Shown in pieces: positions 8,144 to 39,616 of a stretch of 64,000 nucleotides of DNA. The stretch lies in IMG/VR virus record IMGVR_UViG_3300034122_002094; one strand, given 5' to 3'. Position numbers and translations under genes: made by a program. The stretch comes from a virus. Position 1 is the stretch's first letter. Every line of letters begins with the position of its first letter. Under the pieces are notes generated by a model. It was given only the letters and a program-made list of their open reading frames with translations, was not told the DNA's origin and ran no database searches.

Positions 8144-9705
8144 ATTGAGTAGTCTCCATTTGATGCAACGCTTGGCTGCAACATGATGATCTGATGGCCT
8201 TCTTGCTCGTAGCGCTCACGTCTCAAGCGGCCATGCTTTCGGAACATTGGGTGGTGGACCACGCCCTTGGGGGCTCGGCCAACGTGACCGCTGTCAAGCA
8301 TATCATAGAACGCGACGTGACGCACGTCACTTTTCACAACATCTTGACCCTCGCTCTTTGGCTTGCGGAGGACGCGCCCGAGCGCCTGCACGATGTACCT
8401 GCCGGAGCGGCCACCACCCAGGTTCACGCCCGTTGAGACGACAAAGTTCAAGCCTTCCGTCAAGACAGTGCCGATGAGGATCTTGGTCGTGCCCTGCTTG
8501 AAGTTTTCGATCGCCTCTGACCTCTTGCTGCCCTCGGTGGTGCCGTTGATGTAGGCGACCTGGTCTTTGTGGACGCCCATATCAATCAGCATGTCTCTGA
8601 CGATCAGGCCGTGGGCCACGCGCTTGACGAAGATGATGACGTTCTCGCCCTTGTGGTAAGCCTCAAGCGCGATCTGACACCCCATGCGGTTGCGGGCCTC
8701 GCCATTGACGAGGTGCAGCTCGGTCTCAAGCCCATAGTCCGTGGTGAAGTCTGTGACGATGATCTCGTTCTGGATGAGCTTGATGACCGGGCGGGAGAGC
8801 CAGCCCTGCTCGATGAGATGCTTCATCTTGAGCTCATAGATCACAGGACCGATGTTCGCTTTGATGAGGATCGTATTGGAGGCCAGATCTTCATCGCCGT
8901 CGTAAGAGGATCCCTCTGGCGTAGCAGTGAAGCCAAAGCGATATGTCGCGTTTGGCAGCGATGAGAAGATCTTGTCATACCCATCACTTGTCGCGTGATG
9001 GCACTCGTCAACGATAATGCAGCCGATCGTCTTGGCCCACTTGCTCATGGGTGCATTGTCGCCAGCGATGCGGTTGACAAGCGTCTGTCGCAGACACACG
9101 ACAAACTGACACTCGGTCTCTTTGGCGGGTGTGCCTGTCCAGAGGCGCCCGGTGGAGACACCTGTGGCCTCTTCGATCTCGCGCTTGAGCTGCTTGGCGA
9201 GATCCTCTGAGTCTACCACGATCAGGGTCTTGAGGTTGAGCGCGGCTGCGACGCCAGCCAGCACGACGGACTTACCACCACCCGTAGGAATGGCGATGAC
9301 GCCACGGCCCTGCTCGATCGCAGTGAAGATCGCGTCATACTGGTAATCGCGCGGCACGAACGGGATCGCCTCAAGCCTCTTGGCTGCCGCATCAACGTCC
9401 AGAGGAGGATGAGGCACGAGGTTGTCGATCTCATACTCGTAGTTGGCCAGCCGTGGGTCTGTGTTCAGGACCTCGACGGCCTGGCTGAGCAGACCAGTCT
9501 TGAAGCTGCCTGTGCCATGCACCAGCGACTGGCGATCAGGTGGTGGAGCGAAGCCCTTTGCCTTGGCCATCTGGCGCGCGAAGACGCGACCCTTCTTCGG
9601 AGTCTCGTAGCTCAGCACCTCCGAGAGCACCTCTTTGAGCGTGCTGTCCCAGGGCCTGATCTTCGTCCTGGACGGATCGACATGCAGTGTAATCTTCTTT
9701 TTCAT
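8140..9705 (-). CDS. SF2 DExH helicase (UvsW/XPB-like)
   Basis: PRDYQ, IPTGGGKS, DECHH, FTATP and QALGRVLR motifs. Confidence 0.92.
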   Translation of the reverse strand: MKKKITLHVDPSRTKIRPWDSTLKEVLSEVLSYETPKKGRVFARQMAKAKGFAPPPDRQSLVHGTGSFKTGLLSQAVEVLNTDPRLANYEYEIDNLVPHPPLDVDAAAKRLEAIPFVPRDYQYDAIFTAIEQGRGVIAIPTGGGKSVVLAGVAAALNLKTLIVVDSEDLAKQLKREIEEATGVSTGRLWTGTPAKETECQFVVCLRQTLVNRIAGDNAPMSKWAKTIGCIIVDECHHATSDGYDKIFSSLPNATYRFGFTATPEGSSYDGDEDLASNTILIKANIGPVIYELKMKHLIEQGWLSRPVIKLIQNEIIVTDFTTDYGLETELHLVNGEARNRMGCQIALEAYHKGENVIIFVKRVAHGLIVRDMLIDMGVHKDQVAYINGTTEGSKRSEAIENFKQGTTKILIGTVLTEGLNFVVSTGVNLGGGRSGRYIVQALGRVLRKPKSEGQDVVKSDVRHVAFYDMLDSGHVGRAPKGVVHHPMFRKHGRLRRERYEQEGHQIIMLQPSVASNGDYSI

Positions 9706-16300: not shown

Positions 16301-17170
16301 GCGAGCGTCACGAACGCGATACAGGTTCGAGAGACCATCGCGGGTCACAGGTGCCACGCCGTAGCTCACAAGCATGATCGTATCGCCCGAGCTGGCCAGA
16401 CGCAGCCGGTAGGAGGCGTAGTTGCCCTGTGGATCTGGGTGGTTTGGCAACTGGATCTTTGCGATCATCTCAAATGTCAAGCCATTGTCGTCTGATCGCC
16501 AGACAAGCAGCCTGTTCTCACTGGTGCTCGCCTCAACCGATCTGTAAGCCAGATACAGACGGCCCTCATGCACGCACATGGCTGGACTGCCAACCTCGTT
16601 GTCAAAGTTCCTGGTCGAGATCGGCTCGTCATCAAAGCGGCGAACGAGCTCAAGATTCCCGGCGTCGTTGCGACGATAGATTACCGCGTGGGAAGACACG
16701 CCCTGAGAGCCAGCGGTGACCCTCTCGCCGCTCATATAGATCCTGCCATTGAAGCTCTGGATGCGCGGGCTGATCAGGCCGATCGTGGAGCTCGCATCAC
16801 CAGTATCCGCCATCTTGAGCGCGACATACTCCTTGACTGCGTAGCTGTGCTGGCCGATCAAGTGGCCATTGCCATCTGGCGGCGTGGAGTCAAAGCTGTG
16901 GTAAAGCTCAAACGGCTCCAGAAGATCCGATGGTGTGATGCCAGACTGTGGCGGGCGTGTGATGGTGCGGCCAGAGTTCCCTCCCACCGGCCCAGACAGA
17001 ACAACCGTATGCAGGTGCGTCTGGCTGCTATTAAGCGACAGCCCCTGCCTTGTGACCTCGATCTGATAGCCAGGATCGACAGACGTGACCATGCTGCGCT
17101 TGCCACCCGTCACCAGGTTGGCGTAGAGTAGCGAGAAGGAGATCGGGTTAATCAGTGCTGTTCTGGCCAT
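13373..17170 (-). CDS. Large tail protein with a propeller/BNR-like region and C-terminal PKD domain
   Basis: SDDNGLTF Asp-box; WDFGDGSTGSG...HTWTNPGRYRV PKD motif. Confidence 0.7.
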   Translation of the reverse strand: MARTALINPISFSLLYANLVTGGKRSMVTSVDPGYQIEVTRQGLSLNSSQTHLHTVVLSGPVGGNSGRTITRPPQSGITPSDLLEPFELYHSFDSTPPDGNGHLIGQHSYAVKEYVALKMADTGDASSTIGLISPRIQSFNGRIYMSGERVTAGSQGVSSHAVIYRRNDAGNLELVRRFDDEPISTRNFDNEVGSPAMCVHEGRLYLAYRSVEASTSENRLLVWRSDDNGLTFEMIAKIQLPNHPDPQGNYASYRLRLASSGDTIMLVSYGVAPVTRDGLSNLYRVRDARVYISYNDGFLFESASNDHRPFIVESQGSIYAKRSDANFSAMFFMASDGVDEDDFLRATVNFDLYFDQIMGQFIILKGGDPTFLIGDADLPPASSGNNRLIGICASPEDPNTWSACIALNLDATTMGYQVSEDPYDVPAVTDPGDTDRDYNFWIYDLAVCTNGTESFIMMTGQSTNRDGLRSSESVFTRFQMTPVQQLPKGFHDKIMAYGSSVHADFSFVCDAFDAAQSGVYHAGDYRSTSNLLNLEDPALAMHNHEVWSTVRFADPDFPLFEEQVPCFIVHGAQSALGEDYGYEMSWTHYAGDPTLGGLDVTSTGSMDTTLTGEGYEFDTSVDGDTGYFESVEVLLSVPERIVLNRDDFFSFKSRIKLELTTPSGLLEFWRLHLLGESAGISLRLSLTSTRDLSFTDSAGTTLTSTGSFVVPEGMVEFLIYNGFGRLSNSSQTYGAWVFVRAEGDRTWVGPWVVDTISSSSPASTQFAVGVVSYDIHGTGHTATVADVRLSSLGQGYRPFMRSAELADAPEEPLGQVLDETKLPSRPLRAYSNKIELPDGVALSFYGGLITERAPADFSYDRVSANNIASNLLVPISNLVHDVTPLYDSLNPPFYVFENTRRQSFNAIGLSNVVGVTKFSIAAGTFDTTTNTFSSIVASQVMQAPFMPLIIAEQDGAILTVQELPLETHRLLNQYAYVYNTDTGAFRTPQYRVIDNFDDVIVLDYSPVLLANETIALTYHSFTFSVPDEVGRARAPHIGLVMEAPDDTGLQLVTIGSVVFGDFLEISQTAMGLSEAIDSSSKIVTSANNFSHTRSVSDKPLQYKTSFDMYLPTTSIHRTLSALADLKQRSVYTALVYQDSEQDYTSFGQLTELDISSIAYDKTGRLTFTSQDYQLQRLPLEPDQAYIELSAPSELFEVGESYTLSINVITTNTSTIAWDFGDGSTGSGSSVIHTWTNPGRYRVVATVDFGENYIETRSILITVTP

Positions 17171-20100
17171 TATTCTACTGCCTTGAGCTTCAGAGTGATC
17201 GAGTATGCTCTGGCCTCGACCTTGTCGACCAGTAGCTCTCTTGTCGCCTCGCCGTCACACAGACACAAGCGGCATGAGTCTGGATCATTGACATCTTCAA
17301 TAACCCAGATCGGTTTTGCATTCAACGAGATCTTGGACAGGATCGCCTCGATCTTGTGGGCTGTCGAGCTCTTTGTCACGCCGTAGCTCAGGTTGTACTG
17401 CTTGCTGACGTTCTTGACGTTGGACTCAGACACCTGGTTGTTCAGCACATACTGCACGTCAGAGGCGTACTCGTACTGGAAACCTCTGCCGTTGTCTGGC
17501 AGTGTATCAATCAGATCCGAAGCGTATCCAAGGTCAAAGCTCTCAAGCTCGACCGCGCCGCCTGGTAGAGGCGTGGAGGATGAGACTCTAATGCCAGCGT
17601 ACCGCGCACGCAGAGGCTCGCTGAGGCGATGGAAGTGGTCAGACGAGTATACCTGTGCATCGAAGTCAAACGAGCTTCCTGGGGCGTCTGGGACGTCCTG
17701 GTAGCGTACTGGCAGCGCCAGTGTCGGCGTGGGCAGCCTGATGGACTCGGTGAAGGGCGACAGGATCTGGTTGATGACCTGTGTTGTCGGAGGAGCGCAG
17801 ACCATCGCCTCGTCGTCGAGCGCGAGCAGCTCCAACGTGTCCAGCGACTGAACCCATGATCTGCGATCAAGCATGGCGTGGTGATCTGGATAGATCTTCA
17901 TGTCCGCCTCAAGGATCCTTGAGTTTGGGAAGGACAGATTGGCCAGCGCGCGGTATCTCGTGTGCGAGCTGTTGACGGTCGCGACCACCTGCCAGGGATC
18001 ACTCACGCTGTCTCGCACGATCACCTGGTAGTCCTTGAAATTCTTGCCCTTCAAGAGGATGGTGTCAAAGACAAAGCTCGTCAGCCCGCTGTCCTGTGCG
18101 TCAGCCCAGATGACTGCGGTGGAGCTTGAGGCTCGCCAAAAGCCATGCAGCTTGCTTGACAGCATGTTGTTGGGGCTCGTGACGACCGATCGCGTCAGCG
18201 TCAAAGAGTCGCCTGTGAGGTTGCTCGTCCCGGTAAACCTTGTCTTGAAGCCCTGGGGGTAGTAGAGTTCGCACGACACGTTGCCAGACGTCGCTGCAAG
18301 CATCCACTGGGTGCGCGCGTGACCATCCTGAAGCGCGAACGTCGGGGTGTCGTTGCGTGGCATCGAAGAGCTTCCGATGAATGGGTTTGCTCCATAGTCC
18401 ACAAATGCTCCATCGACAGGCTCCCTTGGGCCATTGTCAAAGATGAGGTCGCCGAGCTGGACCTCCCAGACATCCATCGTCATATCACCGCCAAAGCTGC
18501 TGATCCGATAGTAGAGCTCGATGTCGCCGTCTGAGAGCGAAGCCTTGGCGCTGGCGTTGAACATGAGAGATGCTGGCGCATACGACTGGCTGTAAACCAC
18601 TCCAGTCTCGCTGAGGCGCGGCTTGATGATCACCATATAGTCAGATTTGCCCTGGGCCGCCTGCTTGCAAGCAAGGTCGAGATCGTAGAGAACTCCCGGT
18701 AGAAGCTCTGTTGTGGCGAACGTCACATACGCCAGCGTGCCTGCGTCCATGTACTGTGCGCGCAGCTCATAGACGTCGGCTGTCGTCGGCTTTGTGATTC
18801 GAGCCCTGAGCAGGCTCTCAAGCGTCGTGCCAGAGCCATCAGGATTGCTTGTGTTGTCATGCAACACAATCTCCATCCCGTCTTCATCGACAGAAGAAGA
18901 GAGGCTTGGCAGGACGAAGCTAAAGCGTGCGCGACAGCCTCTATTGCCCTCAAAGTTTCTCAGTCGAAGCTTCTTTGATACACCCAGCGCGTCAATGAGG
19001 AAACCGCTGGAGTTGATGGTTGTGGCACCTGTCGAGCTGTTGGTGACGAGATCTGATTGCACAAGAGCTGGTGTGGTGTTCAGGAAGCTCGGGTGGTAGA
19101 CTGTGTGCGCAGGGATCCCGAACGGGAACGAATCGGCAAACTGAGAGTGGTAGAAGGCTGGCTCCTCATAAGCGCTGCCTGAAGCGCTGACGCGCAGGAA
19201 GTGCTTGTCGCGCGTCAGCGACAGATTGTCCATGAAGCGCGCTGGCATCTCGGGGCGATCCTCATAAGTGTTGAAGGTCACCTCTGGCACAATGTTGTAT
19301 GAGTAAGTGAAAGTCCTCAGCGCTTTGTCGTGATGGGCGTTGAAGACAGGCACCGCCTCGAAGCGACGCGCAGGCTGATAGGCATTGACCAGTTGCCAGT
19401 TGCCAACCCAGTTGGAGCCCATATCAAACTCAAAGAATCGATCTCTGTTGGAGCGGAGGATCGATGCGTCGAGGCTCATGAGCTCAGCATGAGGCTGATC
19501 TGGCTGACTGGCGAAGTCTTGCATGTTCTCAAGCTGGATCGTCGTCGCGAGCGCCACGATGTCGCCGTCGATGTTCCAGCACGCCTCAAGGCTCTCGATG
19601 GGGCGCATCTGGTTGATGTCGTTGTAAGCGATGTCGAAGAATGGCGGCAGGCACACCTCTTTCAGCGTCTTGCCAGAACCTGCGAGGATGAAGGGCAGGC
19701 GCCTCGACTGCTCGATGACCGATACGACGATCGAGTTGTGATCAGAGCTTGCCTGGCACTTGATCTCCTGAGCGCCAGCATAGTAGCCAAACTCTCGATA
19801 CGCGACCGTCGCGAGCTCAGCCTCGTTGAAGGTCCAGAACTCTCGCATCTGAAGCGCGACCTCCAGCGACGAGACCGCGTAGTCCACGGCGTTGGACATG
19901 TAGCATCTTGAGAGACCATTGGCGAACAGCGTCACCTCATTGAGTGGCAACGTCGCAATCTTGAGCGTTCTCGTCAGGTGCGGGAAGCTGGAGATGGCGA
20001 GCGGAACGTCGACATACTCGTTGGTCGAGCGACCATAGATGTCCCTGTCCGCCACCTGGAGCGCCTTCCTTGTGTAGCGGTTGTTGCGCTTCTGAGCGAC

Positions 20101-22059
20101 CGTGTAGTAGACGTGAAGCTGGCTGTTGAGAACGCAAGCGTCAAACGACCAGATCTGATCGCCCTGAGCGACAGACGGCAGGTGCAGCTCGTTACCACGC
20201 TGGATGACATCCGTCTCGGGGTCGTATGTTGACACCATGATCGGCTGGTTCACAGGTCTCAGGCTGTCCCTCAGATCCAGGTTGGTCTCAAGATAGCAGA
20301 AGTGCAACAAGCCGCTCGCGCCCTCAAATGCGCTGATAGACTTGGTTGTCAGATCTGCAAGGCGCTCAGATCCTGACACGTCGATAGCTACAAAAGAATT
20401 TGCGCTTACGTCATGCAAGTAGGCGAAAAACTTGCCTTTTGCAAAATAGTTGTAGTCAAAGTAAAGTCGAGTCAGACCTGGATCTGCTCTATCAGCCAGG
20501 CTTTGTTTGTTTACATACGCGACAGGATACTCGAATGAAGAGATTGGATCGACATAGTCAATCTGACACTCGAAGTCAGCCCCTCGACCTGCGTTGTAGT
20601 TGGTGACCTCGTGCTCAACGTAGTAGTGGCCGCGCGGCATGGTCAACAGGAGGTTGCCTGTCTCGCTTGACGATGGCGCTGTTACAAAGCTTTGAGAGTA
20701 GATCGGGGTGTCGTCCCCAATTCGGAAGACTCTCAGGCGGTGGGCCATGTCAGGCACACCAGGTCCGCCAGGTTGTACAAAAATTGTAAACTGGAGACGA
20801 TGCTGAGCGCTCTCATCATAATCGTCGACTCCGGCGCCGCCCTCTACGCCATAGTAGAGAACGTCTCCATTGGTCAGCGCCAGCGTCCTGCTATAAGCTG
20901 TGCGCAATGGACTCAGCAGCTCTGATGTCAGGCTGATGTTCTTCTGGAACACATGGTTGCAGCCGAGACGGGCTCCGTCAATGCGCATGGAGAAGCCTGG
21001 AAGAGCCGCCTCGGGCTGGATCGAGCCAGCCGTGCGCACCTCATATGTGGCTGTCGTCAAGTCCTGAGGCGAACCATCATCAAAGCAAGTGTTGTAAGCT
21101 TCTGTATTGCCTCTGTTATTTTCTGATGGAAGACCTCTGAGCGGGCAGACGGCAGGAGGGTTGCTGTCAGAATAGATCTGCGTTGTGAGAGACGTGACGA
21201 GAGCGAGCTCATCTCCATTGCGATCAGGGCGAAGGCTCGTGAAGTCCTCGATCACCGCCGTATCGCCAAGACCAGCGCCACAACCATAGAGGAGCGCGCC
21301 TGTGAACTCTCCATAGCACAGGTTGTCGGACATGAAGACGGCTGCACGATCTGTCATCGACAGGCAGATAGGCAGGGTCGAAGGGTGTCCGTCGTACCAG
21401 TGCGGATGCCAGAAGACCGGGAAGGTGTGCAGATGGATCGGCGTCACCTCTCCATTGCCAGGAGCGGTGGACGTCCCTGCCAAACGAACGGTCAGCGAGA
21501 AGGCGCCTGTTTGGCTGATGCCTGCTGTGGGGGTGCTCAGGCCGGAGATCCAGCGACCCTCGTGGAAGAGGCATGGCACAAGTTGATCGTCTGGCGTTCT
21601 CGTGAAGCGGAACACAAGTGTGTCTGGCAACGAGAGCGTCATCGCCACCGCTGGATCGCTGTATGTAAAGAATGTGACTGTGTACTTGCCTGAAGCCAGC
21701 TTGGCGATCCGCACCTCCGCATCCGAGACGAGGACCCTCAGGACCTGCCCTGATGTTGACAGCTCATTCAAGTTGTGGCGAAGCGCATACTCAACGGACA
21801 GGATTCGTGTCTCGTCACCAGCGAAGGTGTAGCGCTCCTGGTGAACGCCCGAGCCAGTCCCCTCCAGCGCAAAGCGATGCGGACCTGTCTTGACCACAGC
21901 ATTCGTTGTCACGTCGGTCACGAAAGGCGTCTGCTCGGAGAGACCGTAGCACTCGGTCTGGTCGAAGACTGGCGTGCCTTGCGCCTCAATGGCAAAGCCT
22001 GCGCTGCGCCCCTGGATGATGTTCGTCGAGGGATTCGTCAAAGACTTAAATTTGTACAT
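17170..22059 (-). CDS. Large virion tail protein (distal tail region)
   Basis: About 1630 aa and beta-rich; first gene after the tape measure; GGAG RBS before ATG at 22059. Confidence 0.6.
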   Translation of the reverse strand: MYKFKSLTNPSTNIIQGRSAGFAIEAQGTPVFDQTECYGLSEQTPFVTDVTTNAVVKTGPHRFALEGTGSGVHQERYTFAGDETRILSVEYALRHNLNELSTSGQVLRVLVSDAEVRIAKLASGKYTVTFFTYSDPAVAMTLSLPDTLVFRFTRTPDDQLVPCLFHEGRWISGLSTPTAGISQTGAFSLTVRLAGTSTAPGNGEVTPIHLHTFPVFWHPHWYDGHPSTLPICLSMTDRAAVFMSDNLCYGEFTGALLYGCGAGLGDTAVIEDFTSLRPDRNGDELALVTSLTTQIYSDSNPPAVCPLRGLPSENNRGNTEAYNTCFDDGSPQDLTTATYEVRTAGSIQPEAALPGFSMRIDGARLGCNHVFQKNISLTSELLSPLRTAYSRTLALTNGDVLYYGVEGGAGVDDYDESAQHRLQFTIFVQPGGPGVPDMAHRLRVFRIGDDTPIYSQSFVTAPSSSETGNLLLTMPRGHYYVEHEVTNYNAGRGADFECQIDYVDPISSFEYPVAYVNKQSLADRADPGLTRLYFDYNYFAKGKFFAYLHDVSANSFVAIDVSGSERLADLTTKSISAFEGASGLLHFCYLETNLDLRDSLRPVNQPIMVSTYDPETDVIQRGNELHLPSVAQGDQIWSFDACVLNSQLHVYYTVAQKRNNRYTRKALQVADRDIYGRSTNEYVDVPLAISSFPHLTRTLKIATLPLNEVTLFANGLSRCYMSNAVDYAVSSLEVALQMREFWTFNEAELATVAYREFGYYAGAQEIKCQASSDHNSIVVSVIEQSRRLPFILAGSGKTLKEVCLPPFFDIAYNDINQMRPIESLEACWNIDGDIVALATTIQLENMQDFASQPDQPHAELMSLDASILRSNRDRFFEFDMGSNWVGNWQLVNAYQPARRFEAVPVFNAHHDKALRTFTYSYNIVPEVTFNTYEDRPEMPARFMDNLSLTRDKHFLRVSASGSAYEEPAFYHSQFADSFPFGIPAHTVYHPSFLNTTPALVQSDLVTNSSTGATTINSSGFLIDALGVSKKLRLRNFEGNRGCRARFSFVLPSLSSSVDEDGMEIVLHDNTSNPDGSGTTLESLLRARITKPTTADVYELRAQYMDAGTLAYVTFATTELLPGVLYDLDLACKQAAQGKSDYMVIIKPRLSETGVVYSQSYAPASLMFNASAKASLSDGDIELYYRISSFGGDMTMDVWEVQLGDLIFDNGPREPVDGAFVDYGANPFIGSSSMPRNDTPTFALQDGHARTQWMLAATSGNVSCELYYPQGFKTRFTGTSNLTGDSLTLTRSVVTSPNNMLSSKLHGFWRASSSTAVIWADAQDSGLTSFVFDTILLKGKNFKDYQVIVRDSVSDPWQVVATVNSSHTRYRALANLSFPNSRILEADMKIYPDHHAMLDRRSWVQSLDTLELLALDDEAMVCAPPTTQVINQILSPFTESIRLPTPTLALPVRYQDVPDAPGSSFDFDAQVYSSDHFHRLSEPLRARYAGIRVSSSTPLPGGAVELESFDLGYASDLIDTLPDNGRGFQYEYASDVQYVLNNQVSESNVKNVSKQYNLSYGVTKSSTAHKIEAILSKISLNAKPIWVIEDVNDPDSCRLCLCDGEATRELLVDKVEARAYSITLKLKAVE

Positions 22060-22324
22060 TTTTTCTCCTTGGTGGGCTGAAGTCAAACGACATGAGGCCT
22101 GGGTTCATTCCTTTTTCGCCAGACCGTCTGGCGTCGCTTCAGAGGCCTTCGGTGGCGTTGGACGGCTCTTCACTCGCAGTCGACGAACGAACGTCTCCTG
22201 AAGCCTGCTAGAGGCCTCCAAAGCGAGTGTCGTTGTGCTGGCCACAGTATGGCCTCTCCGTGGCGCTGGTCCGGCTGAGTCTTTCATTTTTTATTTTCAG
22301 ACCACCACTACACTGACCGAAGTG

Positions 22325-22807
22325 GTGACTCGCGAGTCAGTCGCTGTGTACCGATGGTGCCGACACACAGCGGAAAGGGAGGGCCGGTACACGCTTTTAC
22401 CTATTGGACTCAGGTGCTTAAACACCATCTGAGAGCTTCGGTGTACCGGGCCAATCAGGGTGTGTGCAAGCCGTGTGCAGCGGTGCCCGGTACACACTTA
22501 AATCAATATGGCGTATGTCTTTTATTCTCTTTGGAATGGGCGTGTACCGGGGGGCGTGCTCTTTTCTTGTTTTCTCTTAGAACATATAAAGAAAGAGACC
22601 AGAGTGGCGGTACACGCCATTGCTCTTGTCATTAAGTAGTTGGTAAATAAAGAGAAAAGCGTGTACCGGGCCTTGCCGACACACGCTTGCACACATACAC
22701 GGTCAGCGCCTGTAAAAACGAGCCGATTCAAATGTTTAAGTGTGTACCGGGCATCAAGGCCTTCCGACCCGTCCGCCCGGTACACACTTCACTGACTCAC
22801 GAGTCAC
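22325..22807. repeat. Array 1 of alternately oriented GTGTACCGG boxes, bounded by 17-bp palindromic inverted repeats
   Basis: Forward boxes near 22346, 22441, 22542, 22661, 22742; reverse boxes at 22384, 22487, 22607, 22777. Ends are GTGACTCGCGAGTCAGT (22325-22341) and ACTGACTCACGAGTCAC (22791-22807). Confidence 0.9.
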
Positions 22808-25800
22808 TCGCGGTTCTTGTCGGCCTGCTTCATCTTCTTGCGGAGCTCAGCCACCATCAGCCTGCTGTTGCGCAGCGTCTCATCTCTGCTTGTGCCGCTG
22901 GCGGCATTGACAGTGAGGTTGAACGTCTGCGTCTTCTGGTTGTTGGTGTTGTAGGTCTGAGGAGCCGCGCTGACGCGAGACGGCGCTGACATGGGAGTGG
23001 ACGATGTGGCTGCACGCTGGTAGTCAGGGATGAACTGACCGCCGTTGATGTTGTTGATGGCCTTGACGCCACCGAGCATCGCCACCGCCTCACGAGTGAG
23101 CACCGCCTCACCGCCGAGCAGCATCGCTGGTCGCTCACCTCTGCCCGGCACAAGACCACCCTCGTGGAACTTGTCCAGCCCGAGGGCACCGCCAAGCGCG
23201 TTGGTGATCGTCTTTGTGACCGAGAAGCCCTTGGTGATGTCCGTGCCTGTGAGCCCCTTCGAGATACCACCGATGGTGCGCAGGATGAGATCCGGCACGA
23301 TGCCGATGACGGCGCCGATGATAGCTGGGATGAGTCGAGCGATGAGCATTGGGAGGTTCTCCACAAGGCCAACGATCATGAGGACCGCCAGCGTTGGGAT
23401 GACCGCCGTGAGCTCAGCGATGAGGTTCGCCAGGTTGGGCAGCAGCGCGCCTGCCATCTCGAAGACCACACCAATGAGCGGGCGGATGAGCTGGAACAGG
23501 GCGCCGAGCATCATGGAGATGATCTCGGGGAACTTCTGAACCACCGTCACGATCACCTCGCTCAGGAGGCCTGGCAGCACCTCGACCAGCGCTGTCAGCA
23601 CGTTCGGCAAGACGTCGTCCACGAGGATCAGGAAGATCTCCTTGAACAGCGGTCCGACCTCCTTCATGACAGTCTTGATGGTGTTCGGCAGCTCACTTGC
23701 AAACTTCTTGATGAAGTCGATGAGATACTCGCTCTGGCCTGTCAACGCCGAGTTGAAGACCATACCGAACACTGTCCCGATCGCCGAGATCGTTGTCGTC
23801 GCGAGCGAGATGCCTCCTGCGCCGACAAGCCCGAGTCCAGCATCCAGCATATCCGATCCGCCAACCTGGGCTCCACCAGTGAGGCCATCGAACAACGTCC
23901 CGAGGTTGTTCTTGGTGTTGAGCGCGCCGAGGGGCGCAGTGAACACCTCAAGCTCCTGGAGACCAGCCAGCGCATTGCTGAATCCAGCGCCGATGTTCTC
24001 GACAGCAGGACCGAGGAAGTTGTCCTTGAAGACCTGACCAGTGCGCATGAGCGCATCCTGGTATGTCTTCTCAGCGGCCATCAGCGCCTCATATCGAGTA
24101 CGCTCAGCATCCTGAATCGAGTTGATGTAGTCGTAGTAGCTGTTCTCATTTCGAGCAAGACCATCGTTGGCCGTTTGAACGCTCGAAGCGAACTCCTGGC
24201 TTGCAGTCTTGATGTCCTCGATGAGCTGCTCGAACGACTGAGCATTGGAGACCGCATACTCGATGTTACCGATCGCCTCAAGCGCAGGCGTCAGCCCCGT
24301 TGTGATGGACGCGAACATCGACGGGATTCGCTTCACCAGCGCGGCTGCGAGGCCCTTCCATGAGCCCTCTGCCATCGCTGTGTTCATCATCTCATCGACA
24401 CCCTTCAGGAACGCCTCCCTGACAGCCAGAGGAGTGTTCTTGTAGGTGATCTCCATGAGCTTGGCCTCTCGCTCACGATCGACCTGCGACTGCTGAGCAC
24501 CGATCGCGGCATCAGCCACGGCCTTGCTCGTCGCACGCTCCATCGTGTTCTCGATGCCTACGCCGATGACGCGCGTGAGCATACGAGCCGCAGCCTGATC
24601 GCCTGCGAGCTTTGCAGCCTCCTCAGCCTTGCCAAGAGTGTAGTCTGCCGCGACCTTGAGGGCAGAGCTCATGGTCACAGCCTGCTCCTCATAGAGCTCG
24701 GCTGCTCGGCCAATGAATGTGCCAAGGCTTGCACCAGCTCCCGCCGCCGCAGCGACGCCACTGTTGCGCAGATCCGAGACATCAGGATTCGATCTGTAAC
24801 CACCTGTCTCAGTCTTGAGGTTCGCGGCAAGGTTCTTCTTGGCCGCCGCCCTACCAGACTTTGTAGTCTGACTCTGGAGCGCAGCGAAGCTGTCGACGAT
24901 GTTTTGGAGTCGAGTGATCTCGTTAGACAGGAAGTCAAGGTTGACCTCGAAGTCCTTCTCGATCTGAGGCAGACGGAACGACCCCTCGCCCTTGAGGGCA
25001 GCGGCCAGATCCATGTTACCATCGCCCATCATCGGGCCAAGGATGCTCATGATGGAGCGCAGCTCATCACGGATGAGCGCTGCGTCCCTCTTGAAGACAT
25101 CCATGTTGCGGAAGCCGACAGAGATCAGCATCTCGTTCTTGGCTGCCTTCTCCAGGCCTCTGACCTGCTCGTCCATCTGCATACGCAGCGTGTCAAGAGC
25201 TGCCAGGCCAGCCGCGTTTGTGCGGGAGGCCATCTCGACGAAGTCCTTGTCGAAGTCTGCCAGCGCCTTGTTCGCGCCCTCGTAGTCTCCCTCACGGATA
25301 GACTCGTTGAAGCGCGCCGCGTTGAGGTCCATGCGCTGCTGTGTCAGCTTGAGCAGCACTCTCTCGCGCTCAGCCTCCAGGTCATAGAGCTTCTTCGCCT
25401 CTCGGGCCGCGCGAGCGATGGGCTCGGGCAGTGCGTCAATGTTCACCTTGCCAGCGCGCAACGCATCGAGCAGTGTGTCGGCGAACTCACTGGTCTGTCC
25501 GACGACCTGTCCGAAAGACACGCCCAGAGCCTTGGAGAGCGTCAGAGAGGCCTTCAGAGGCGCTCTGGCGATGTCTGTCCCCATCGCGCTCTTGATGAAG
25601 CTCTCAAGCGGCGCACGGACCGTCTGGATCGCCTTGATGAAGTCCTTGCCGATCTCGGGGCGTCGATCATCGAACATGGCCTCAGCCATCTTCTTCTTGA
25701 TCTTGTCCAGCATGTCTGCTCGATCCTTGAGCAGCTTGACCTCCTTGTTCAACAGACGGATTGTCTCAGACTGCATCTGGAATGCAGTCGTCGCGCCGCT

Positions 25801-28800
25801 CGCGTAGGCCTTGTTGACCTCGTTGATCTGCTGACGGATGCGATTGATCGCTGGCAGCTTCGATGCGAGCGTCAGGATGTCGAGCGTCACCTCACGGAAG
25901 CCCTTCGGCGCCAGCATGGAAGCTGCGATGCCGTAGGTTTCCATCAGCATTTCATTCTCCTCGGCATAGGTGTCAAGGAGCTTGATGCGGTCCTTGAGGT
26001 ACGTCTGCTGGAGGTTGATGATCTGCGTGTACGCCGCGACCGACTCCTTTCCGTTGCCGAGCAGCTCACGGTCAAGCTTCATCTCGCGCAGCTTCTGCTC
26101 CACGATCAGTCGAGAGCGCTTCGCTGTGGACGAGAGGATAGCCAGACCATCAGTCTGGAATGTGTTGATCTGCTTTGCCGCAAAAGCTGCATCGTTGAAG
26201 GCATTCTTCTCCTTCTCGATCTGCGCAGCGATCTCGCGGTTCTGGCGGATGCGGTTCGCCTGTGACTCGAACAAGACCTTCGCAAGCTGGTTGATAAAAT
26301 CAAACTGCTGGCCTTGCTTGTCGAGCTGCTTGTTACCCTCCTCTCGCTGCTGCTGGGCCTCCTCCGACAGAGAAGACTGCGCAGCCTGCTCTGCAAAGCC
26401 CTTCTCCTGGAGCACGAGCTTGTCGCGCTCCATCTTGAGGATCGACTGAGCCATCGCCAGACGCTTCTGATCGGACAGGCCGATGCCGCCCGATGCCGCT
26501 GCACCGCCGTTCTGAGCTGCGTTCAAGTCCTCGACAGCGGCGATAGCCTCGCGGACCTTCTCCCTCGTCGTATCGAACTGCTGGGCGAACTCGTTGCGCT
26601 TGTAGATCTTCGACATCAGAGCATTGGACTCGACTGCGCGGATGGCGCCCTGCTCGATGTCCATGAAGAATCTCTCGAACTCTCTGGCCGTGTCCTCCAA
26701 GATCTTGTTCTGAGTGATGGCCATGATCGACGAGATGGTCTTGTCGAACGCCTCCGTGAATCCATCAGCGCTCGTGGATGCGTCCATCATCGACAGAGAC
26801 ATGACCTCGATGGCCTTGACGAACTGCTCGGAGCTCAGCGTCGCCATGCCGCTCTTCTCGTCATATGCCGAGAACAGTGACTCGATCGCAGCCTCCATAT
26901 CAGCGCCACCGAGAGACTCGATGAAGCGCTTCTGGAGATCCTTGTCGACCATCACGGCGTCCTCGATCAGACGACGAGTGCCCGCCTTGTCGACCTTCAG
27001 GCCACCAGGCATTGCGGCTGGCTGGAAGCCGCGCTCAGAGAAGTCGCGACCGCTCAGCTCTCCAGTCTTCCTCTGGTTGAGAGACTGCAAGCCCAGACGA
27101 CGGAACTCTGCAAAGTTCTGCTTCGATACAGCGACGCGAGCGTTGATGTCGCGCAGGTTGCTCATCACAGAGTTGAACATCTTCGGATCCAGAGGGACGC
27201 CAAACTGCTCACGCAGGTCATCGATCGAGCGGAAGGTCGCCGCGAAGGCATCCTGCGCTCCGACCTCCTGGATGTCAGCGATGGAGACCTTGAACTCATC
27301 GAGGCGGCCCTTGAGCCAGTCAAGGTTCTTGCCTGTCAGGCGCGTCATCTCGAAGACCTTCTCATCGATCTTCTTCAGACCCTCCAGATCTGTTGGCTTC
27401 ACCGCAAACGCTGTGCGCAGACGAGAGCGAGCCTTGATCACCGAGGAGACGAACTCCTCTGTTCTCTTGGTCGAAGTGATGATCTGGTCCTTGAAGGACT
27501 TGTCATCGATCAGAGAGAAGTCGCCTGAGCGGATACCAGCAGACATCTGCTCACGGCGCTTGTTGATGTCGTTGATGGCTGCCACCGCCTCAGCCATATT
27601 CTTCTCGTTGACCATCTGGCCACGACTGTCACCAGCGACCACGTCGTACTCGTTTTGACGCTGTGCGTCTGCGAGCTTCTTTGTCTGTACAGCGAGCTCG
27701 TCATCGAGCTTCTTGAACAGGCCCTTCATGCTCGATGGGTCGACGATGTTCGCGATGTCCTTCTCGATACTGTCCTTGAGACCGTCAGGCAGCCCCTGGA
27801 GCGCGCGCATGGGCACACGGATACCTGCCCACATGTCGCTCGACATCGAGGCCGCTGCGAGCGTCTGGAGCGATCCGATGAAGGTGTCCTCGTGCGACAT
27901 GATCGCTTCTGTGATCGCATCGTCGATCGACTTGCCGCCGCCGAACTGGAGGTCGAGATCGAGGGCGAGACCCTTGACGATCGCGACGCGCTGCTCGTCC
28001 TGCTCGATCTTGAGCGCCTTCTCGCGCTCCTTGGCGTAGCCGCGCACCTGTTGAGCCAGCAAGCGATAGCTCTCACCGATCTCCTTGTTGGACATCATGG
28101 TGATGCCTGAGACGGTCAGAGCCTCGTCGCCGAGCTTTGTGATCTGCTGACGGAGCGCTGCTCCGAAGTTCTCTGGATCTGTCTTGCCGAGGTTGGCGAT
28201 CTTGTCGAACTGGTCAAACGCCTCGCCAACTCCCTTCATGGCCGACTGCTTTGCAGAGGTCTTCGAGAGGGATGCGTTGAGATCATCAATGCGGCCCTGG
28301 AGGTTCTCCACAAACGATGCAGCCTCTGCCGCACCAGTCGAGAAGGCGTAGAAGACGGCGCCAGCGGCCACGATAGCGAGCATTGGAGCCATCAGGGCGT
28401 ACAGAGCCTTGACGTTTGTCCAGATTGCAGCTCCCATCGCCCTGAAACCAACCGTGTTGGTGACGCTGACGACGCCAAGAGCCGCCAGCGATGGCAAGCC
28501 TGCTGTGACAGACGTGTTGAGAGCTCCCTGCGCAGCCGCTGCTTGAGCTGTTGCATAAGCCTCTTGCTGCTGAGCAACAGTCTTCGTCTTGATCGCGATG
28601 ACGAACTTTGCGTAAGCCCCGATGGCGCCAACTGTCTGCTGGATGAGAACTCGGCTCTGGAGCGCTCCAAGACCGTACACAACAGCCGCGAGGACGCGGA
28701 GCGTATTGGCCAGCGTGATCACGCCGAAAGCGAAGATGGCCAGCTTGCCGATGATGCCGCCCGTCGCGTTGTTCATCTGGGTGATCGCCATCGCCGATCC

Positions 28801-31800
28801 CTTGATGAACTCCAGGAACTGGATCGCATACGGCGCGAGCTTGTCAAAGCCCTGACGGATCAGATCGAGGATGGCTTGACGCATCTGATTAAACTTGCGA
28901 TCAAGCGACTTTGTGACGAGCGAGGAGAGCTCGTCGTTCACGCCTGCCGACTCATCCTTGATGCGACGCAGCGCCTTCTGGACCTCTGGGAACTTCTGAG
29001 CGAGCGTCACGAAGCCACGAGCACCCTCGCGGTCGAAGATCTGGAAGACCTTGTTGAGCTCGCCAGCCGAGATGGCGCCCGTCGCGAGCTTCTTGTTCAT
29101 CTGCTCAAGGATCGACATGAACTGCTCAGCGAGCGGCATGTTTGGATCGATCTCGACGCCGAACATCTTCTTGAGCATCTCGCCCTTGCTGGAGAGCTGA
29201 GCGAAGATCGTCTGGAGGCCACGACCGGCCATACCGCTCTTGATCATGTTGTCGTTGAGGACAGCGAGGTACGTTCCCATCTCCTGGAACGTGAAGCCAG
29301 CAGCACGACCCGTACCGATCACGAACTTGTAGCCCTGGACCATCTCGTCCATCTCGGCCTGGTGATTACGGAATACGGCAACGAGCGTGTTGTTGATTGT
29401 CTCGAACTCCATGCCCTGCGCACCAGCATCAGCCATGTTCTTTTTGAACACGTTGTAGATACCGGCCACAGCTCGGGTGATCTGAGTCGTCTCAGCGTTC
29501 GTCGAGTTAATGGTCTTGAGCGTTGGGATAAGAGCGGACAGCGTCTCCTCAGTGGAGAGACCTGCCGAACCGAGCTCCTTGACGACGTCAGCGGCAGCCG
29601 CCAGAGGCAGACCGAAGCGGACAGCCGCCGAGCGGACAGCCTCGGTTGCAGCGACAGTGATCTCCTCAAAGCTCTTTGTGTCCGACTGGAGGACAGTGAA
29701 TGCTCGCGTCATATTGCGCGCCTCACTGATGACCTCTCGGAAGGCGATGCCTACCGATCCAAGCACAGCCGTCATGGCACCAGCGCCGATGGCGAAGTCG
29801 AGCTGCTGCTTGATACCCTCCACGAGCTGGAAGGCATAGTCCCTGAATGTCGTGCTGGTCGCGTTGACCACGAGGTCAGCGGTCTTCACAGACCCGGCCA
29901 TGTGGTTTGTCGTGGCGATCAGGCGCTCGGACTCAACCAGCGTGCGACGCAGCTCGTTGCGGTAGACCTGCTGCTCCTGCGTGAGCTCTCCCATGCTCAC
30001 CTCAAGAGCATCGAAGCTGCGCACGCCCTTGAGCGCTGCATTGTAGGCAGCCTGGAGCTCAGTCCTCAGAGACTTGAACTCGTTGGACGCCATCGCCAGG
30101 CGAGTCGTGTCCATCGAGCTGAGATCCTGGTTGATCTCAGCAAGCTGCTGGCGCATGGCGCCCGAGTCAAACGTCTGGGTGTTGAAGGCGGCCTGACGAC
30201 CACGATCAGCGAATCCAGCGTTGGTCTGCTGCTGCTGGAACTCAGGCGAGAAGCGCATGTCCGACAGCTTCTGAGCACGAGCCATGAAAGACGCAAGCGC
30301 CGCATCAGCGCGGTCGAGCTGCATCTGGAGCTGAGCTGTCTCCTCCGCGCCCGCGCCCATCGACTGCGCAAGGTTCAGACCAGCCTTGGCCTCGTTGCGG
30401 ATCTTGTTCAGGCTCTGGAAGAGCTGCTGAGCCTCCTGCACTGCATTCTTGGACTGCAACGACAGGATCTCAAGATCCTCGGGCGCAACCTTGGTCTTCG
30501 ACATGCGCTGGAAGCCAAGCTCAAGCAGGTCAATCTTCTGACGCGCCTGCTCGACCTGGTTCTCGATGTCGTTGTACCCCTCCGAGATCTTGATGTTGGC
30601 TGCGCTTGCAGATCTGGATACATCGGTGTTCTGCTGCTTGAGACGGCCAAGCAGATCCACCATGCCGTCAACGACCTTGACATCAGCCGAGCTCACAACA
30701 ACAGAGCCGTCAAGACCTCTGCGCTCTACGCGCTGAGACTCGACGACGCCCTTGATGGTGTCGTCATAATACTTGTTCTTGGCCTTGCGGGCCTCATCGG
30801 CAGCCTTAGCGATCAGGCGCAGACGCTGCTCCTCGCTCTCAGCGCCACGAGCGACCTCCGAGAAGATCGAGCTGCCGCCAGCGCGGGCGTTGGCCTCCTC
30901 TGTGTCGATGCCACCGATCTCACGGCGACGAGCGATCTCAAGACGCTTGACAAGCTGATCGCCCTGACGGACAAGGCCAGCCAGACGAGTGTCGAGGCTC
31001 TTGGCGATCTCCACCTGAGATGGATCGAGGATGAGGCCGTCCCAGCCCTGGACCTCTGCGATGGTGTCCTGAATCTCAAGGAAGGCAACACGGAAGCGCT
31101 CCGCGTCTCTGAGCGTCTTCTCAGTGATGCGAGCAGGCTCCTCCGTCACACGAGTCTTGGAGCGGATGTCAGCCAGTACAGCCGAGGTCTGCGTCGAGAT
31201 GCCACGCACATCGTTCTGACGAACACCAGCCTCCTCTCGCGCCTCCTTCACTCGGATGAGGTTGAAGAACAGCTCCTCCAGAGAAGCTGCGGCCTGCTCG
31301 GCCTGTGGCGCGATGGCGCTGATGCCCTGGGCAACGGCGACTCCTGCGCCAGACAGCAGGTCCTCGCGCGCGCTACCAGCACCAGCAAGAGCGCCAATGC
31401 GGCTCATCAGGGTAGAGATCGCCTGGATGACCTGCGAGGATGTCGCAGGATCCTGGATCGCCTCGTTGAGCTTTGTGACGAGCTCAGACTGGAACTGCGC
31501 GACCATCGAAGGTGGCAGGAACTGCGAGCGGTTGTTCTGAGAGAACAGGCGCTCGATCATCTGAGGGCCAATGATCCCAGACAGCGCCGGATCGGAGGCT
31601 GCCTCCTGGAGCTGTGCGATGAACGGAGCGAATGTCGCGCTGCCGCCCGAGCGCTGAGAGCGGCCATCAGCGGCCTGTGTCAGGGCGATGAACTCGCGCA
31701 GTCGCGGCATGACCTGAGCAAACTGTGTCGCAGTCTGCGTAGCGCGCTCACGGATCTGGCCCAGATAGCCAGTCTCAAGGTTCGAGGCGCGCTCCATAAC

Positions 31801-37970: not shown

Positions 37971-38031
37971 CGCATTACCTTCGGTTGGCGATGTGTTGGA
38001 ATGGCGTCCTGGTGTCGGGCGCAGGTTACAG

Positions 38032-38106
38032 TGTGTAGGGAGGGAATCGAACCCTCGACCCCAGGATTAAGAATCCCATGCTCTGACCTAGCTGAGCTAC
38101 CCACAC
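38032..38106 (-). tRNA. tRNA-Lys(CTT)
   Basis: Cloverleaf, loop TT-CTT-AA. Confidence 0.92.
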
Positions 38107-38111
38107 AAAAG

Positions 38112-38193
38112 AGGAAGAGGTGGGGGTCGAACCCACAGCCCTTGACGGGCGACGACTTAGCAAGTCGCTTGATGCGCCAGTTTCCGCTCTTCC
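38112..38193 (-). tRNA. tRNA-Ser(GCT)
   Basis: GGAAGAG acceptor, loop TT-GCT-AA, long variable arm, weak D arm. Confidence 0.8.
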
Positions 38194-38204
38194 TTTTGAC
38201 GACG

Positions 38205-38480
38205 TCAGTGCTTGCAGACTACCGCGAGGCAGTCATACTCATCGAGCAGGACAGTGTCGACGCCCTGGAAGGTGATCTCCTTGCCAGTGTGGACCGGGTA
38301 CAGGACGACGTCGCCCTGATGGACCAGATCCTTGTTGACGCCGGGTCCGATCTCCAGCACTTCGCCCTGACGAACGTCGGAGTACATGGGCGCAGCGAGG
38401 AGGATGCCACCCTCAGTCTTCGACTCGAAGGGGATGGGGCGAACGAGGATACGATCGCGGAGCGGTTGCAGATGACTCAT
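38205..38480 (-). CDS. groES: Co-chaperonin GroES-like protein
   Basis: LQPLRDRILVRP...KTEGGILL...GEVLEIGPG...GDVVLY; GGAG RBS. Confidence 0.9.
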   Translation of the reverse strand: MSHLQPLRDRILVRPIPFESKTEGGILLAAPMYSDVRQGEVLEIGPGVNKDLVHQGDVVLYPVHTGKEITFQGVDTVLLDEYDCLAVVCKH

Positions 38481-38505
38481 GGGACTCCTTGTTTTTTAGA
38501 ACCAG

Positions 38506-38578
38506 TCTGGGTGACAGGACTCGAACCTGCGTGTTCTGGTTCCCAAAACCAGCCGTTGACCACTAACGTAACACCCAG
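38506..38578 (-). tRNA. tRNA-Pro(TGG)
   Basis: C1-G72, loop TT-TGG-GA, A73. Confidence 0.88.
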
Positions 38579-38640
38579 ATGCTGCCGACCGGGTTTTAAT
38601 CGGTCGGCTCTACTCCTTCTACACTTGGTAGATGAGCTGA

Positions 38641-38726
38641 TGGTTGATGCAGGATTCGCACCTGCTGACGTTTGTACAGACGCCGCCTCGTCCGCGAGGC
38701 CTCCGCTACTACACGGCCCTTCAACC
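38641..38726 (-). ncRNA. tRNA-like RNA with closed-down anticodon loop and long variable arm
   Basis: GGTTGA/TCAACC acceptor, GCCTCG-CGGA-CGAGGC arm, GCAGG-TGCGAAT-CCTGC T arm. Confidence 0.55.
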
Positions 38727-38728
38727 AA

Positions 38729-38884
38729 GGGCAAGGCGTGGAATCGAACCACGTTCTCTCTATCATCTCAGCGATGAATCCAAGACGGGACACTCGCGCC
38801 TACTTCCGGCTCAGCGGTCGGCCTACCCGTCTCTTCAATCAGAGCGATACGATCAGAGCGTTCTACCTCATGAACTACCCTGCC
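38729..38884 (-). ncRNA. tRNA body with a ~90-nt structured insertion at the anticodon loop
   Basis: Canonical acceptor (GGCAGGG/CCTTGCC), D arm (GTTC/GAAC) and T arm (GTGG-TTCGATT-CCAC); the insertion contains a GAGACGGG/CCCGTCTT stem. Confidence 0.7.
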
Positions 38885-38911
38885 ATGTGCCTTTTTAAGG
38901 AAGGCTAACCT

Positions 38912-38988
38912 TCGTCGACGTGAAGGGACTCTCACCCTGCTCCCAGACCCGAAGGTCTCGCGCTCGCTCACCGGCGAGAAGTCAACGA
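38912..38988 (-). ncRNA. tRNA-like RNA with a UUCG tetraloop in place of the anticodon loop
   Basis: TCGTTGAC/GTCGACGA stem, CTCGC/GCGAG arm, AGACC-TTCG-GGTCT arm, AGGG-TGAGAGT-CCCT T-like arm. Confidence 0.5.
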
Positions 38989-39069
38989 TGCCAGAAGGTG
39001 GACTCGAACCACTGACCTGCCCTTGCCCTAGCGGAACGTGGGCCGCTCTACCAACTGAGCTATTCCGGC
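38989..39069 (-). ncRNA. tRNA-like RNA with enlarged (17-nt) anticodon loop
   Basis: Canonical TAGCTCAGTTGGTAGAGC D arm and TTCGAGT T loop; GCCC-N17-GGGC. Confidence 0.7.
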
Positions 39070-39079
39070 CATCGAACAG

Positions 39080-39173
39080 TCGCCAGGTGTGGCATCGAAC
39101 CACAACCTTCAGTTCGCTCTTCTCTAGTAGGAGACGAGTCTGATCTGATGCTCTACCCTAGAGCTCCCTGGCG
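39080..39173 (-). ncRNA. tRNA-like RNA with an extended hairpin replacing the anticodon loop
   Basis: CGCCAGG/CCTGGCG acceptor, GCTC/GAGC D arm, TCAG...CTGA enclosing ~30 nt, T loop TTCGATG. Confidence 0.65.
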
Positions 39174-39292
39174 GGAATTTTCGCCAGAGTCTTTTTACAA
39201 GGACTGGCTGCCTTGACTGGAGCTTGTTGGGCTTGGTCGACATTACCCAACTGGCCGTTACCAGCGTACCGCACACCTGTGACAGTGTGGGA

Positions 39293-39591: not shown

Positions 39592-39616
39592 GTTCGCTCT
39601 ATCGAGCGATGAGCAG

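Follow-up and report, generated by a model that had tools for sequence, protein, structure and literature searches.

The stretch analysed here (hereafter the window) comprises 64,000 nucleotides of the virus record IMGVR_UViG_3300034122_002094, and its subject is a repeat array within the tail operon, which we call A1, at positions 22325-22807. The source is a complete 176,695-bp IMG/VR record of an uncultured tailed phage with a GC content of 56.5%, and the window corresponds to the reverse strand of genome bases 108713-172712. Its minus strand carries the genes for the large terminase, the portal, the major head protein, the tape-measure protein and very large tail proteins, as well as 24 tRNA genes that lie in two clusters (35648-40706) within this structural gene arm. 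A1 is located in the 717-bp gap from the tape-measure stop codon (22804-22806) to the next tail gene. Read along the sense strand of the tail operon, it consists of five convergent pairs of a 9-bp box (H1 to H5), separated by four spacers (S1 to S4) and enclosed by two palindromes. The features of the locus, in the direction of transcription, are the following.

22804-33282, minus strand: tape-measure protein of 3492 aa (Pfam PhageMin_Tail), upstream of A1.
22325-22807, minus strand: array A1 as a whole, H1-S1-H2-S2-H3-S3-H4-S4-H5 between two palindromes.
22791-22807, no strand: upstream palindrome with a TGACTC-AC-GAGTCA core, holding the tape-measure stop codon.
22738-22789, minus strand: H1, with boxes at 22777-22785 and 22742-22750 and a stem of about 15 bp, prolonged through AAGT/ACTT and GC/GC.
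22685-22741, minus strand: S1, a spacer of 57 bp with a degenerate extra box position in its 3' part (alignment column 123).
22647-22688, minus strand: H2, in which the variant box GTGTGTCGG (22676-22684) is paired with CCGGTACAC (22661-22669); its 13-bp stem has two G.U pairs on the sense strand and is followed by a T-run, and is thus terminator-like.
22616-22660, minus strand: S2, an AT-rich spacer of 45 bp.
22539-22618, minus strand: H3, with boxes at 22607-22615 and 22542-22550 and a loop of about 58 nt holding an internal stem and the motif CTTTATAT.
22496-22541, minus strand: S3, an AT-rich spacer of 46 bp.
22441-22495, minus strand: H4, with boxes at 22487-22495 and 22441-22449 and degenerate inner box positions (alignment columns 352 and 363).
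22393-22440, minus strand: S4, an AT-rich spacer of 48 bp.
22346-22392, minus strand: H5, with an outer box at 22384-22392, an inner variant box at 22360-22368 and a closing box at 22346-22354.
22325-22341, no strand: downstream palindrome with a TGACTC-GC-GAGTCA core, found in the same place in the relative L047.
17170-22059, minus strand: tail protein of 1629 aa without a known family, downstream of A1.

The original prediction, made from the letters of the window, had described nine copies of GTGTACCG that mostly alternate in direction. All nine are present, five on the plus strand (22346, 22441, 22542, 22661 and 22742) and four on the minus strand (22385, 22488, 22608 and 22778), and the ninth G is found in seven of them. 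Two degenerate boxes, CCGACACAC, at 22360-22368 and 22676-22684 raise the total to 11 boxes in five pairs, and because these variants (GTGTGTCGG on the sense strand) fill the vacant positions, they account for the single apparent break in the alternation. The reverse-to-forward gaps of 48, 46 and 45 bp were measured correctly and are AT-rich, with a GC content of 0.35-0.46 as compared with 0.53 in other intergenic DNA. The 17-bp terminal repeats likewise differ by one mismatch, are each a TGACTC-NN-GAGTCA palindrome and overlap the stop codon on the right side as had been described; the genome has no copy of this palindrome apart from the two at the ends of A1. With boxes of 9 bp in alternating orientation, the array is neither a CRISPR nor a tandem repeat, and it is non-coding, since paralogues and orthologues retain only boxes and lengths. 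A search of Rfam found no family for A1: the window's matches were tRNAs only, and at E<=1 chance hairpin matches far below threshold.

The box is confined to very few places. The complete genome holds 29 copies of GTGTACCG, and all except one of these 8-mers lie within three arrays, which together make up 0.8% of the genome. Exact 9-mers occur 15 times in the window as compared with 0.11 expected, a number that none of 100 shuffles reached. Each array contains 10-13 oriented copies of the 9-bp box GTGTACCGG or its variant GTGTGTCGG, and the genome has no fourth array, even in degenerate form. The genome-wide count that had been proposed as a check therefore finds the motif concentrated in the arrays, and the A1 site is kept in L047, whose tail protein is 59% identical; neither a lack of enrichment nor a lack of conservation, either of which would have spoken against the original prediction, was observed. 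Identity with a DnaA box was considered and rejected, as only TACACA is in common with an R2-type box, and a reading of the box as a -35 element fits one spacer only. Avoidance of GTAC or CCGG as restriction sites is mild and uninformative, and a full-text literature search for the motif returned primer matches only.

The other two arrays lie at the following positions.

58188-58629 of the window, plus strand: array A2, a paralogue with the five-pair plan, at the divergent junction of the terminase operon and the helicase operon.
52824-53263 of the genome, genome minus strand: array A3, a paralogue of A1 outside the window (contained in genome stretch 52820-53294, which is L001 1497-1971), between two small genes of the other gene arm.

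All three are about 440 bp long and non-coding, and they follow an identical plan when each is read along local transcription (window minus, window plus and genome minus strand, respectively): five convergent box pairs with four spacers, the spacers being flanked by divergent pairs. Across the three arrays the boxes of H1 are 28 nt apart when counted as 8-mers and 26 nt apart as 9-mer arms, values that hold for A1 itself; H2 has a short loop, and the intervals of H3, H4 and H5 are about 58-60, 18-39 and about 30 nt. Spacers measure 45-57 bp: in A1 and A3, S1 reaches the variant box after 57 bp, and most other spacers are 45-48 bp long. In H2, H4 and H5 a second degenerate box is located about 11 or 24 bp from the full box. 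A1 and A3 are 86.6% identical over 157 bp around H3, the best-conserved part in this comparison, and are inverted with respect to each other in the genome, so that both are co-oriented with their own operons. A2 shares little with either of them except the boxes and their positions, and terminal palindromes are absent from both A2 and A3. By means of the arrays, the two long divergent gene arms of the genome are each cut into two blocks. Two metagenome contigs of the same phage (L077 and L078) end inside A2 and the contig L047 begins inside an A1-type array, which suggests that assemblies tend to break at these repeats.

The lineage is without cultured relatives: blastn gave no match to cultured phages, and the top match of the large terminase is 28% identical. 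IMG/VR likewise yielded no relative, whether it was searched by peptide patterns, single proteins or alignments. Exact-protein look-ups recovered metagenome contigs of related phages. On L047, whose tail protein is 59% identical, the array is of the A1 type and is represented by its 3' half along with the downstream palindrome. L072, with 67% identity in a terminase-like protein, carries a complete A2-type array, and a complete A3-type array is present on both L079 and L080, where identity of the neighbouring protein is 82% and 97%, respectively. Together with A1, A2 and A3 they form an alignment of seven copies, six complete and one partial (L047). All seven are colinear, and the sites are syntenic in relatives whose neighbouring proteins are 59-82% identical. 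The comparison with related phages that the original prediction had called for thus finds the arrays at their sites, and colinear, in every relative recovered. Colinearity also extends to further metagenome assemblies, three for A1, which is identical in all of them, and four for A2.

The alignment reveals an unusual division between what is kept and what drifts. Shared box positions agree within about 3 nt in five complete copies (the A1/A3-type arrays and A2 of this genome and that of L080) and drift by up to about 7 nt towards the 3' end in L072 and L079. The arms are 75-99% identical, as opposed to 38-50% for loops and spacers, which is near random for their composition, yet loops and spacers are almost without indels; between A1 and A3 the spacers show no gap in 186 columns at 47% identity. 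Spacer GC content is 0.34-0.40 in the six complete copies and 0.48 in the partial L047, as compared with 0.53 in the other intergenic DNA of the genome, while the loops, unlike the AT-rich spacers, are of ordinary composition. Selection thus acts on the boxes, in both sequence and position, and on the length and AT content of the spacers, while the sequence of spacers and loops is free of it. Spacer sequence is also unconserved between orthologues, except for S1 of A2. In H2 and H4 of L072 the stems are reduced to 6 bp, and the GTACAC core is still in position. At alignment columns 123/134 and 352/363, a full box is accompanied by an extra degenerate one at a distance of 11 bp. The CTTTATAT motif in the loop of H3 is retained in five of the seven copies, being CTTTAT in A2 and degenerate in L072. 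The S2-H3 segment of the L080 A3 array is closer to A1 (82% and 93%) than to A3 (67% and 80%) of this genome, indicating that array copies exchange sequence. In H1 of L080 (L080 1392-1436) the 26-nt loop is the reverse complement of the A3 loop of this genome, with 25 of 26 positions matching when inverted and 13 of 26 when direct; the neighbouring protein there is the one with 97% identity.

Several features tie the arrays to transcription. All three are co-oriented with it, and on the sense strand H2 followed by a T-run resembles a terminator in A1, A2 and A3 as well as in the A3-type arrays of L079 and L080, whereas this feature is not found in L072. H1 starts 5-18 nt after the upstream stop codon, and in A3-type copies H5 ends about 6 nt ahead of the next ribosome-binding site. 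The inverted repeats are longer than the boxes alone, each pair being prolonged by complementary flanks of its own, such as AAGT/ACTT, GGC/GCC or AAGC/GCTT.

On the downstream side of A1, a GC-rich leader of about 265 nt (window 22060-22324) separates the array from the tail gene. Its last 80 nt or so are conserved with L047 in the blocks AGCGACGCCAGA, AAAGGAATGA and TCGTTTGAC, and leader words such as GAGGCCTCT recur near other genes.

The surroundings of A2 bear on what the arrays may do. On one side it is followed by the 160-aa gene, which starts 60 bp beyond the array, the superfamily 3 (SF3) helicase, and then ThyX and PhoH; on the other side lie a 264-aa protein, about 400 bp away, a 97-aa gene, the large terminase and the portal. 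No replication gene is near A1 or A3.

58689-59171, plus strand: protein of 160 aa, first gene downstream of A2, with weak helix-turn-helix leads only.
59179-60900, plus strand: DUF5906-type SF3 helicase of 573 aa, second gene downstream of A2.
56986-57780, minus strand: protein of 264 aa with a weak N-terminal helix-turn-helix match, upstream of the large terminase and likely to be the small terminase subunit.

The 160-aa protein belongs to no family, and its homologues among 1.8 billion representatives number just four, which does not suffice for a useful structure model. Its residues from about 51 to 105 match 11 stretches of P0008, a metagenomic protein of 1250 aa, and, judging from this match, it may be built from a repeat module. 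Between the 264-aa gene and A2, a strong terminator-like hairpin on the plus strand (16-bp stem and T-run) is followed directly by a promoter-like site, TAGAAA-N18-TATAAT, that faces A2; the two occupy window 57977-58051.

Taken together, the length constraint, the conservation of the boxes beyond that of their pairing, the selection for AT in the spacers and the neighbouring helicase favour a function of the duplex DNA, and we consider it fairly probable that the arrays are DNA-level platforms for a protein of some kind. A multi-site protein-binding platform had been the first proposal of the original prediction, and it stands as the best single reading, in that all seven copies have kept the boxes and their positions, and what lies between them has been randomised in sequence without gaining or losing bases; that part rests on observation, whereas the binding itself we infer. 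Of the further roles named there, partition and packaging are neither favoured nor disproved. A more specific form, an origin-type, helicase-loading or homologous-region platform for a phage protein, we favour only tentatively and would not put at an even chance. A1 would then be one of three paralogous cis-acting DNA scaffolds, or 'homologous regions', whose boxes would be occupied by a sequence-specific protein encoded by the phage to give a higher-order complex of defined geometry. The most likely binder would be the SF3 helicase encoded beside A2, a candidate for box binding or loading, or a partner protein. The complex might open or bend the AT-rich spacers, and the arrays might serve as origin-type helicase-loading sites or as enhancer sites of replication or transcription, with A2 as the primary site and A1 and A3 as auxiliary ones. 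The predicted intrinsic terminator on the sense strand of H2 would in addition close the upstream transcription unit.

The nearest precedent, by analogy, would be the origins of self-loading SF3 helicases. Origins of the SaPI type are sets of short iterons of about 300 bp, 'oppositely disposed' around AT-rich DNA, in which inverted iterons flank the melting points; a self-loading SF3 helicase binds the iterons through its winged-helix C-terminal domain (bioRxiv 10.64898/2026.10.17.759575). The arrays resemble such SaPI/PICI origins, and the ori and crr of P4, in having a few hundred base pairs of short opposed repeats around AT-rich DNA thought to melt and, at A2 only, an adjoining SF3 helicase gene. 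P4 also has a second, distant cis site with the same repeats. As in an iteron origin, oriented boxes are clustered (10-13 per array, and confined to the arrays) and AT-rich DNA is present in the form of four spacers, mostly of 45-48 bp. The differences are nevertheless considerable: the iterons of those systems measure 5-7 bp and stand almost side by side, as opposed to boxes of 9 bp at distances of 15-67 bp here, each array has four AT-rich units rather than a central one, the genome has three arrays, two of them inside structural or other operons, and the paired arms are drawn out into longer inverted repeats, one of which resembles a terminator.

A looser analogy is provided by the homologous regions (hr) of large eukaryotic double-stranded DNA viruses. 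The baculovirus hr and the herpesvirus oriS and oriL act as origins and/or enhancers, and in oriS inverted initiator boxes, which can refold as a hairpin, flank an AT-rich spacer. Like the arrays, they are dispersed paralogous non-coding sets of imperfect palindromes in a large double-stranded DNA virus, with exchange of sequence between copies, but sequence, host domain and proteins are unrelated, and the phage has just three copies on one fixed five-pair plan that are co-oriented with transcription.

Weighing against an origin-type platform are, first, the location of A1 and A3 inside operons, distant from replication genes, and the presence of three origin-like sites in one genome. The boxes lack the dense packing of known iterons, and their distances reveal no clear helical phasing. 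GC and AT skew, the former suggested as a check by the original prediction, track the coding strand only, and the GC skew, flat and uninformative here, gives no origin signal. The shared orientation with transcription, the H2 terminator and the position of H1 shortly after the stop codon are not needed by a pure DNA platform, and the pair-specific complementary flanks, together with changes on both arms of H1 and H2 in L079, favour a hairpin in single-stranded nucleic acid. Finally, the binder is a candidate only, and the 160-aa protein has no usable homologues.

Co-orientation, the H2 terminator, the tight fit from stop codon to ribosome-binding site and the extended arms favour a role of the sense-strand RNA or a boundary of transcription units; the former, an RNA punctuation module, we regard as possible but doubtful. 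The transcribed array would fold into five stem-loops, of which H1 and H2 would terminate or attenuate the upstream unit while the others would form protective structures at 3' and 5' ends, and the AU-rich linkers would be entry sites for an endonuclease, so that stability and amounts of the upstream and downstream messages would be uncoupled; the common stem would be maintained by concerted evolution or by a hairpin-binding protein. The array folds with a z-score of -9.2, and the flanks specific to each hairpin prolong the stems past the box. In the alignment, 81.6% of cells pair, as compared with 23-49% when the partners are slid, and eight pairs are changed on both sides, as compared with a mean of 4.6 in shuffles, 15 of 500 of which reach eight. 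Both arms of H1 and H2 are changed jointly in L079, where the variant is present on each (GTGTGTCGG with CCGACACAC), and H4 of L079 shows an exchange of G-C for A-U. Only the 5' arm of H2 is variant in this genome; the two resulting G.U pairs make it an intermediate that pairs on the sense strand only. We consider this covariation support real but, as most stem positions are invariant, modest.

On the other hand, there would be no reason for independent hairpins to share one stem, or for their loops and linkers to hold their lengths to about 3 nt while the sequence was randomised, and the sequence-specific reading of a perfect RNA stem with variable loops of 7-60 nt would be unusual. A consistent strand bias of the hairpins was not detected in whole-array folding energies, G.U counts or per-stem tallies of wobbles and mismatches: the antisense strand folds as well or better in five of seven copies, G.U pairs number 86 on the sense and 117 on the antisense strand, and A.C mismatches, which the opposite strand would turn into G.U pairs, also occur. 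The two decayed hairpins of L072 have kept their box cores in position, A2 has no upstream gene to terminate, and the co-variation of the arms could be mutational, through template switching within inverted repeats, an event whose occurrence here is illustrated by the loop flip of L080. Pairing in an alternative register (the reverse box of one pair with the forward box of the next, as in an antiterminator) was rejected, as the flanks support local pairs only. The REP and BIME elements of enterobacteria, for which termination, mRNA stability and binding of gyrase or integration host factor (IHF) have been proposed, consist of alternating palindromic units with fixed-length linkers in intergenic DNA within operons, and the arrays resemble them in these respects; REPs, however, are chromosomal, exist in hundreds of copies and have a RAYT transposase, as opposed to three phage loci and no match to PF01797 here.

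RNA punctuation and an origin-type platform are not mutually exclusive. In a hitherto undescribed kind of phage homologous region acting at both levels, boxes on duplex DNA would recruit the SF3 helicase or its partner, and transcription stopped at H2 would expose the sense strand, whose hairpins would refold while the AT-rich spacers open, giving transcription-triggered starts of replication or recombination at several sites, one per gene arm and one at the junction. We consider this combination quite unlikely.

An operator-controlled cassette of terminator and promoter is another unlikely explanation. Here H2 would end the upstream unit, a promoter in a spacer would restart transcription and the boxes would be operators through which a phage regulator times or insulates the restart, in keeping with the division of each long gene arm into two blocks. 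In A3-type arrays S4 indeed carries TTGACA-N18-TATAAA, pointing downstream with a predicted start just 5' of H5, and L080 and L081 have retained this site, of which L079 shows a weak form. By contrast, no spacer of A1 has a promoter-like site (S4 included, which lacks a convincing sigma-70 promoter), the only good match of A2 faces the wrong way and a promoter in each spacer is unsupported across the three arrays. Moreover, spacer sequence is hardly conserved between orthologues, and 10-13 boxes with four equal spacers would be superfluous for one promoter. Composite motifs of this kind, termed PeSLs, are known from T4-type phages, in which a terminator-like stem-loop and a sigma-70 promoter are repeated in intergenic DNA as single units of about 50-70 bp at dozens of gene boundaries and recombine between copies (PMC2839356, PMC4122927). 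The arrays share with PeSLs a repeated intergenic motif with a terminator-like stem-loop and U-run (in A1, A2, A3, L079 and L080, not in L072) and the exchange between copies. They differ in having five hairpins with a common stem in a 440-bp block at three sites only, instead of scattered single units, and in a joined promoter that is evident in A3 only and lacking in A1.

Much less probable is a recognition platform for the small terminase, pac- or cosB-like, in which an AT-rich spacer would bend so that the inverted boxes on either side of it meet. In lambda cosB, inverted R sites surround a bend site. The place of A2 next to the packaging genes fits such a function, and in an unrelated marine phage group an array of GTGTACC words likewise occupies a divergent junction, with several small genes separating it from the terminase operon downstream. 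However, three sites per genome would be unexpected, two of them being far from packaging genes, the spacers contain no IHF consensus or IHF-like site, and the 127-bp terminal overlap on the genome record resembles an assembly overlap and does not provide physical genome ends. Least probable of all, and very improbable, is the second proposal of the original prediction, a small mobile or invertible unit that is not autonomous, either MITE- or MPME-like or a DNA switch. Three paralogous copies of about 440 bp, the inverted palindromes around A1, the flipped 26-nt loop and the exchange between copies in L080 speak for it. Against it, each copy is at the same site in the diverged relatives, and seven other assemblies show A1 or A2 colinear and with no or almost no sequence difference; A2 and A3 have no terminal palindromes, and no target-site duplication is visible in the sequence next to A1 (..GAAGTG and TCGCGG..). 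Matches to a tyrosine recombinase or integrase (PF00589), a serine recombinase of the resolvase/invertase type (PF00239) or a Y1 transposase (PF01797) are absent from the complete genome, and no empty site was seen among the relatives recovered (the A1 site being covered by only one relative, at 59% neighbour identity). The sole inversion seen in the assemblies is that A3 loop, and invertible segments of 7-60 bp are too short for known site-specific inversion.

The arrays are thus a real and conserved cis element that has so far not been described. Cis-acting DNA elements of large uncultured phages are almost unknown, as annotation stops at genes, and the evolutionary signature is unusually clean in this case: sequence drifts while 10-13 box positions and four spacer lengths are fixed across paralogues and relatives. 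If the arrays are origins or helicase-loading sites, they would offer a handle on how replication starts in a 177-kb siphophage with an SF3 helicase and why it needs three sites; if they are modules of RNA punctuation, they would represent a new way to partition very long phage operons. As the box is a defined 9-mer with defined candidate binders, these possibilities are directly testable.

Among the genes next to A1, the 3492-aa tape measure implies an exceptionally long tail. Five large open reading frames of 1638, 1265, 1224, 521 and >1421 aa lie in the tail region downstream of it, and scans of the 1638-, 1265- and 1224-aa frames against Pfam and PHROG found only a PKD domain, on the 1265-aa protein.

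Box-pattern scans of viral, metagenome and genome collections also returned arrays of GTGTACC words on unrelated contigs, alongside satellite-like tandem repeats and chance matches. These contigs have no proteins in common with the phage and no common neighbouring family, and DUF5906 was not found on four viral contigs with such arrays, all of which are fragments. The recurrence may reflect a recurrent recognition specificity or coincidence in very large collections and is a lead only; occurring on unrelated phage and plasmid-like contigs, it hints at a wider recognition theme. The marine group (L012, with the array at 9341-9656, L021, L032, L039, L040, L042 and L045) has a GC content of about 0.40 and a P22-like portal, and its array of about 320 bp holds 10-12 GGTGTACC boxes, some in tandem at 9-10 bp and some inverted. 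A GTGTACC array is also present on a viral contig of 72% GC and on several others. Eight GTGTACC boxes occupy positions 3036-3215 of a contig from a Ruminococcus metagenome-assembled genome (L085), between a replicase-like gene with Bro-N, Toprim and AAA_25 domains and a MobA/MobL relaxase gene, and are thus in an origin-like position on a plasmid-like element.

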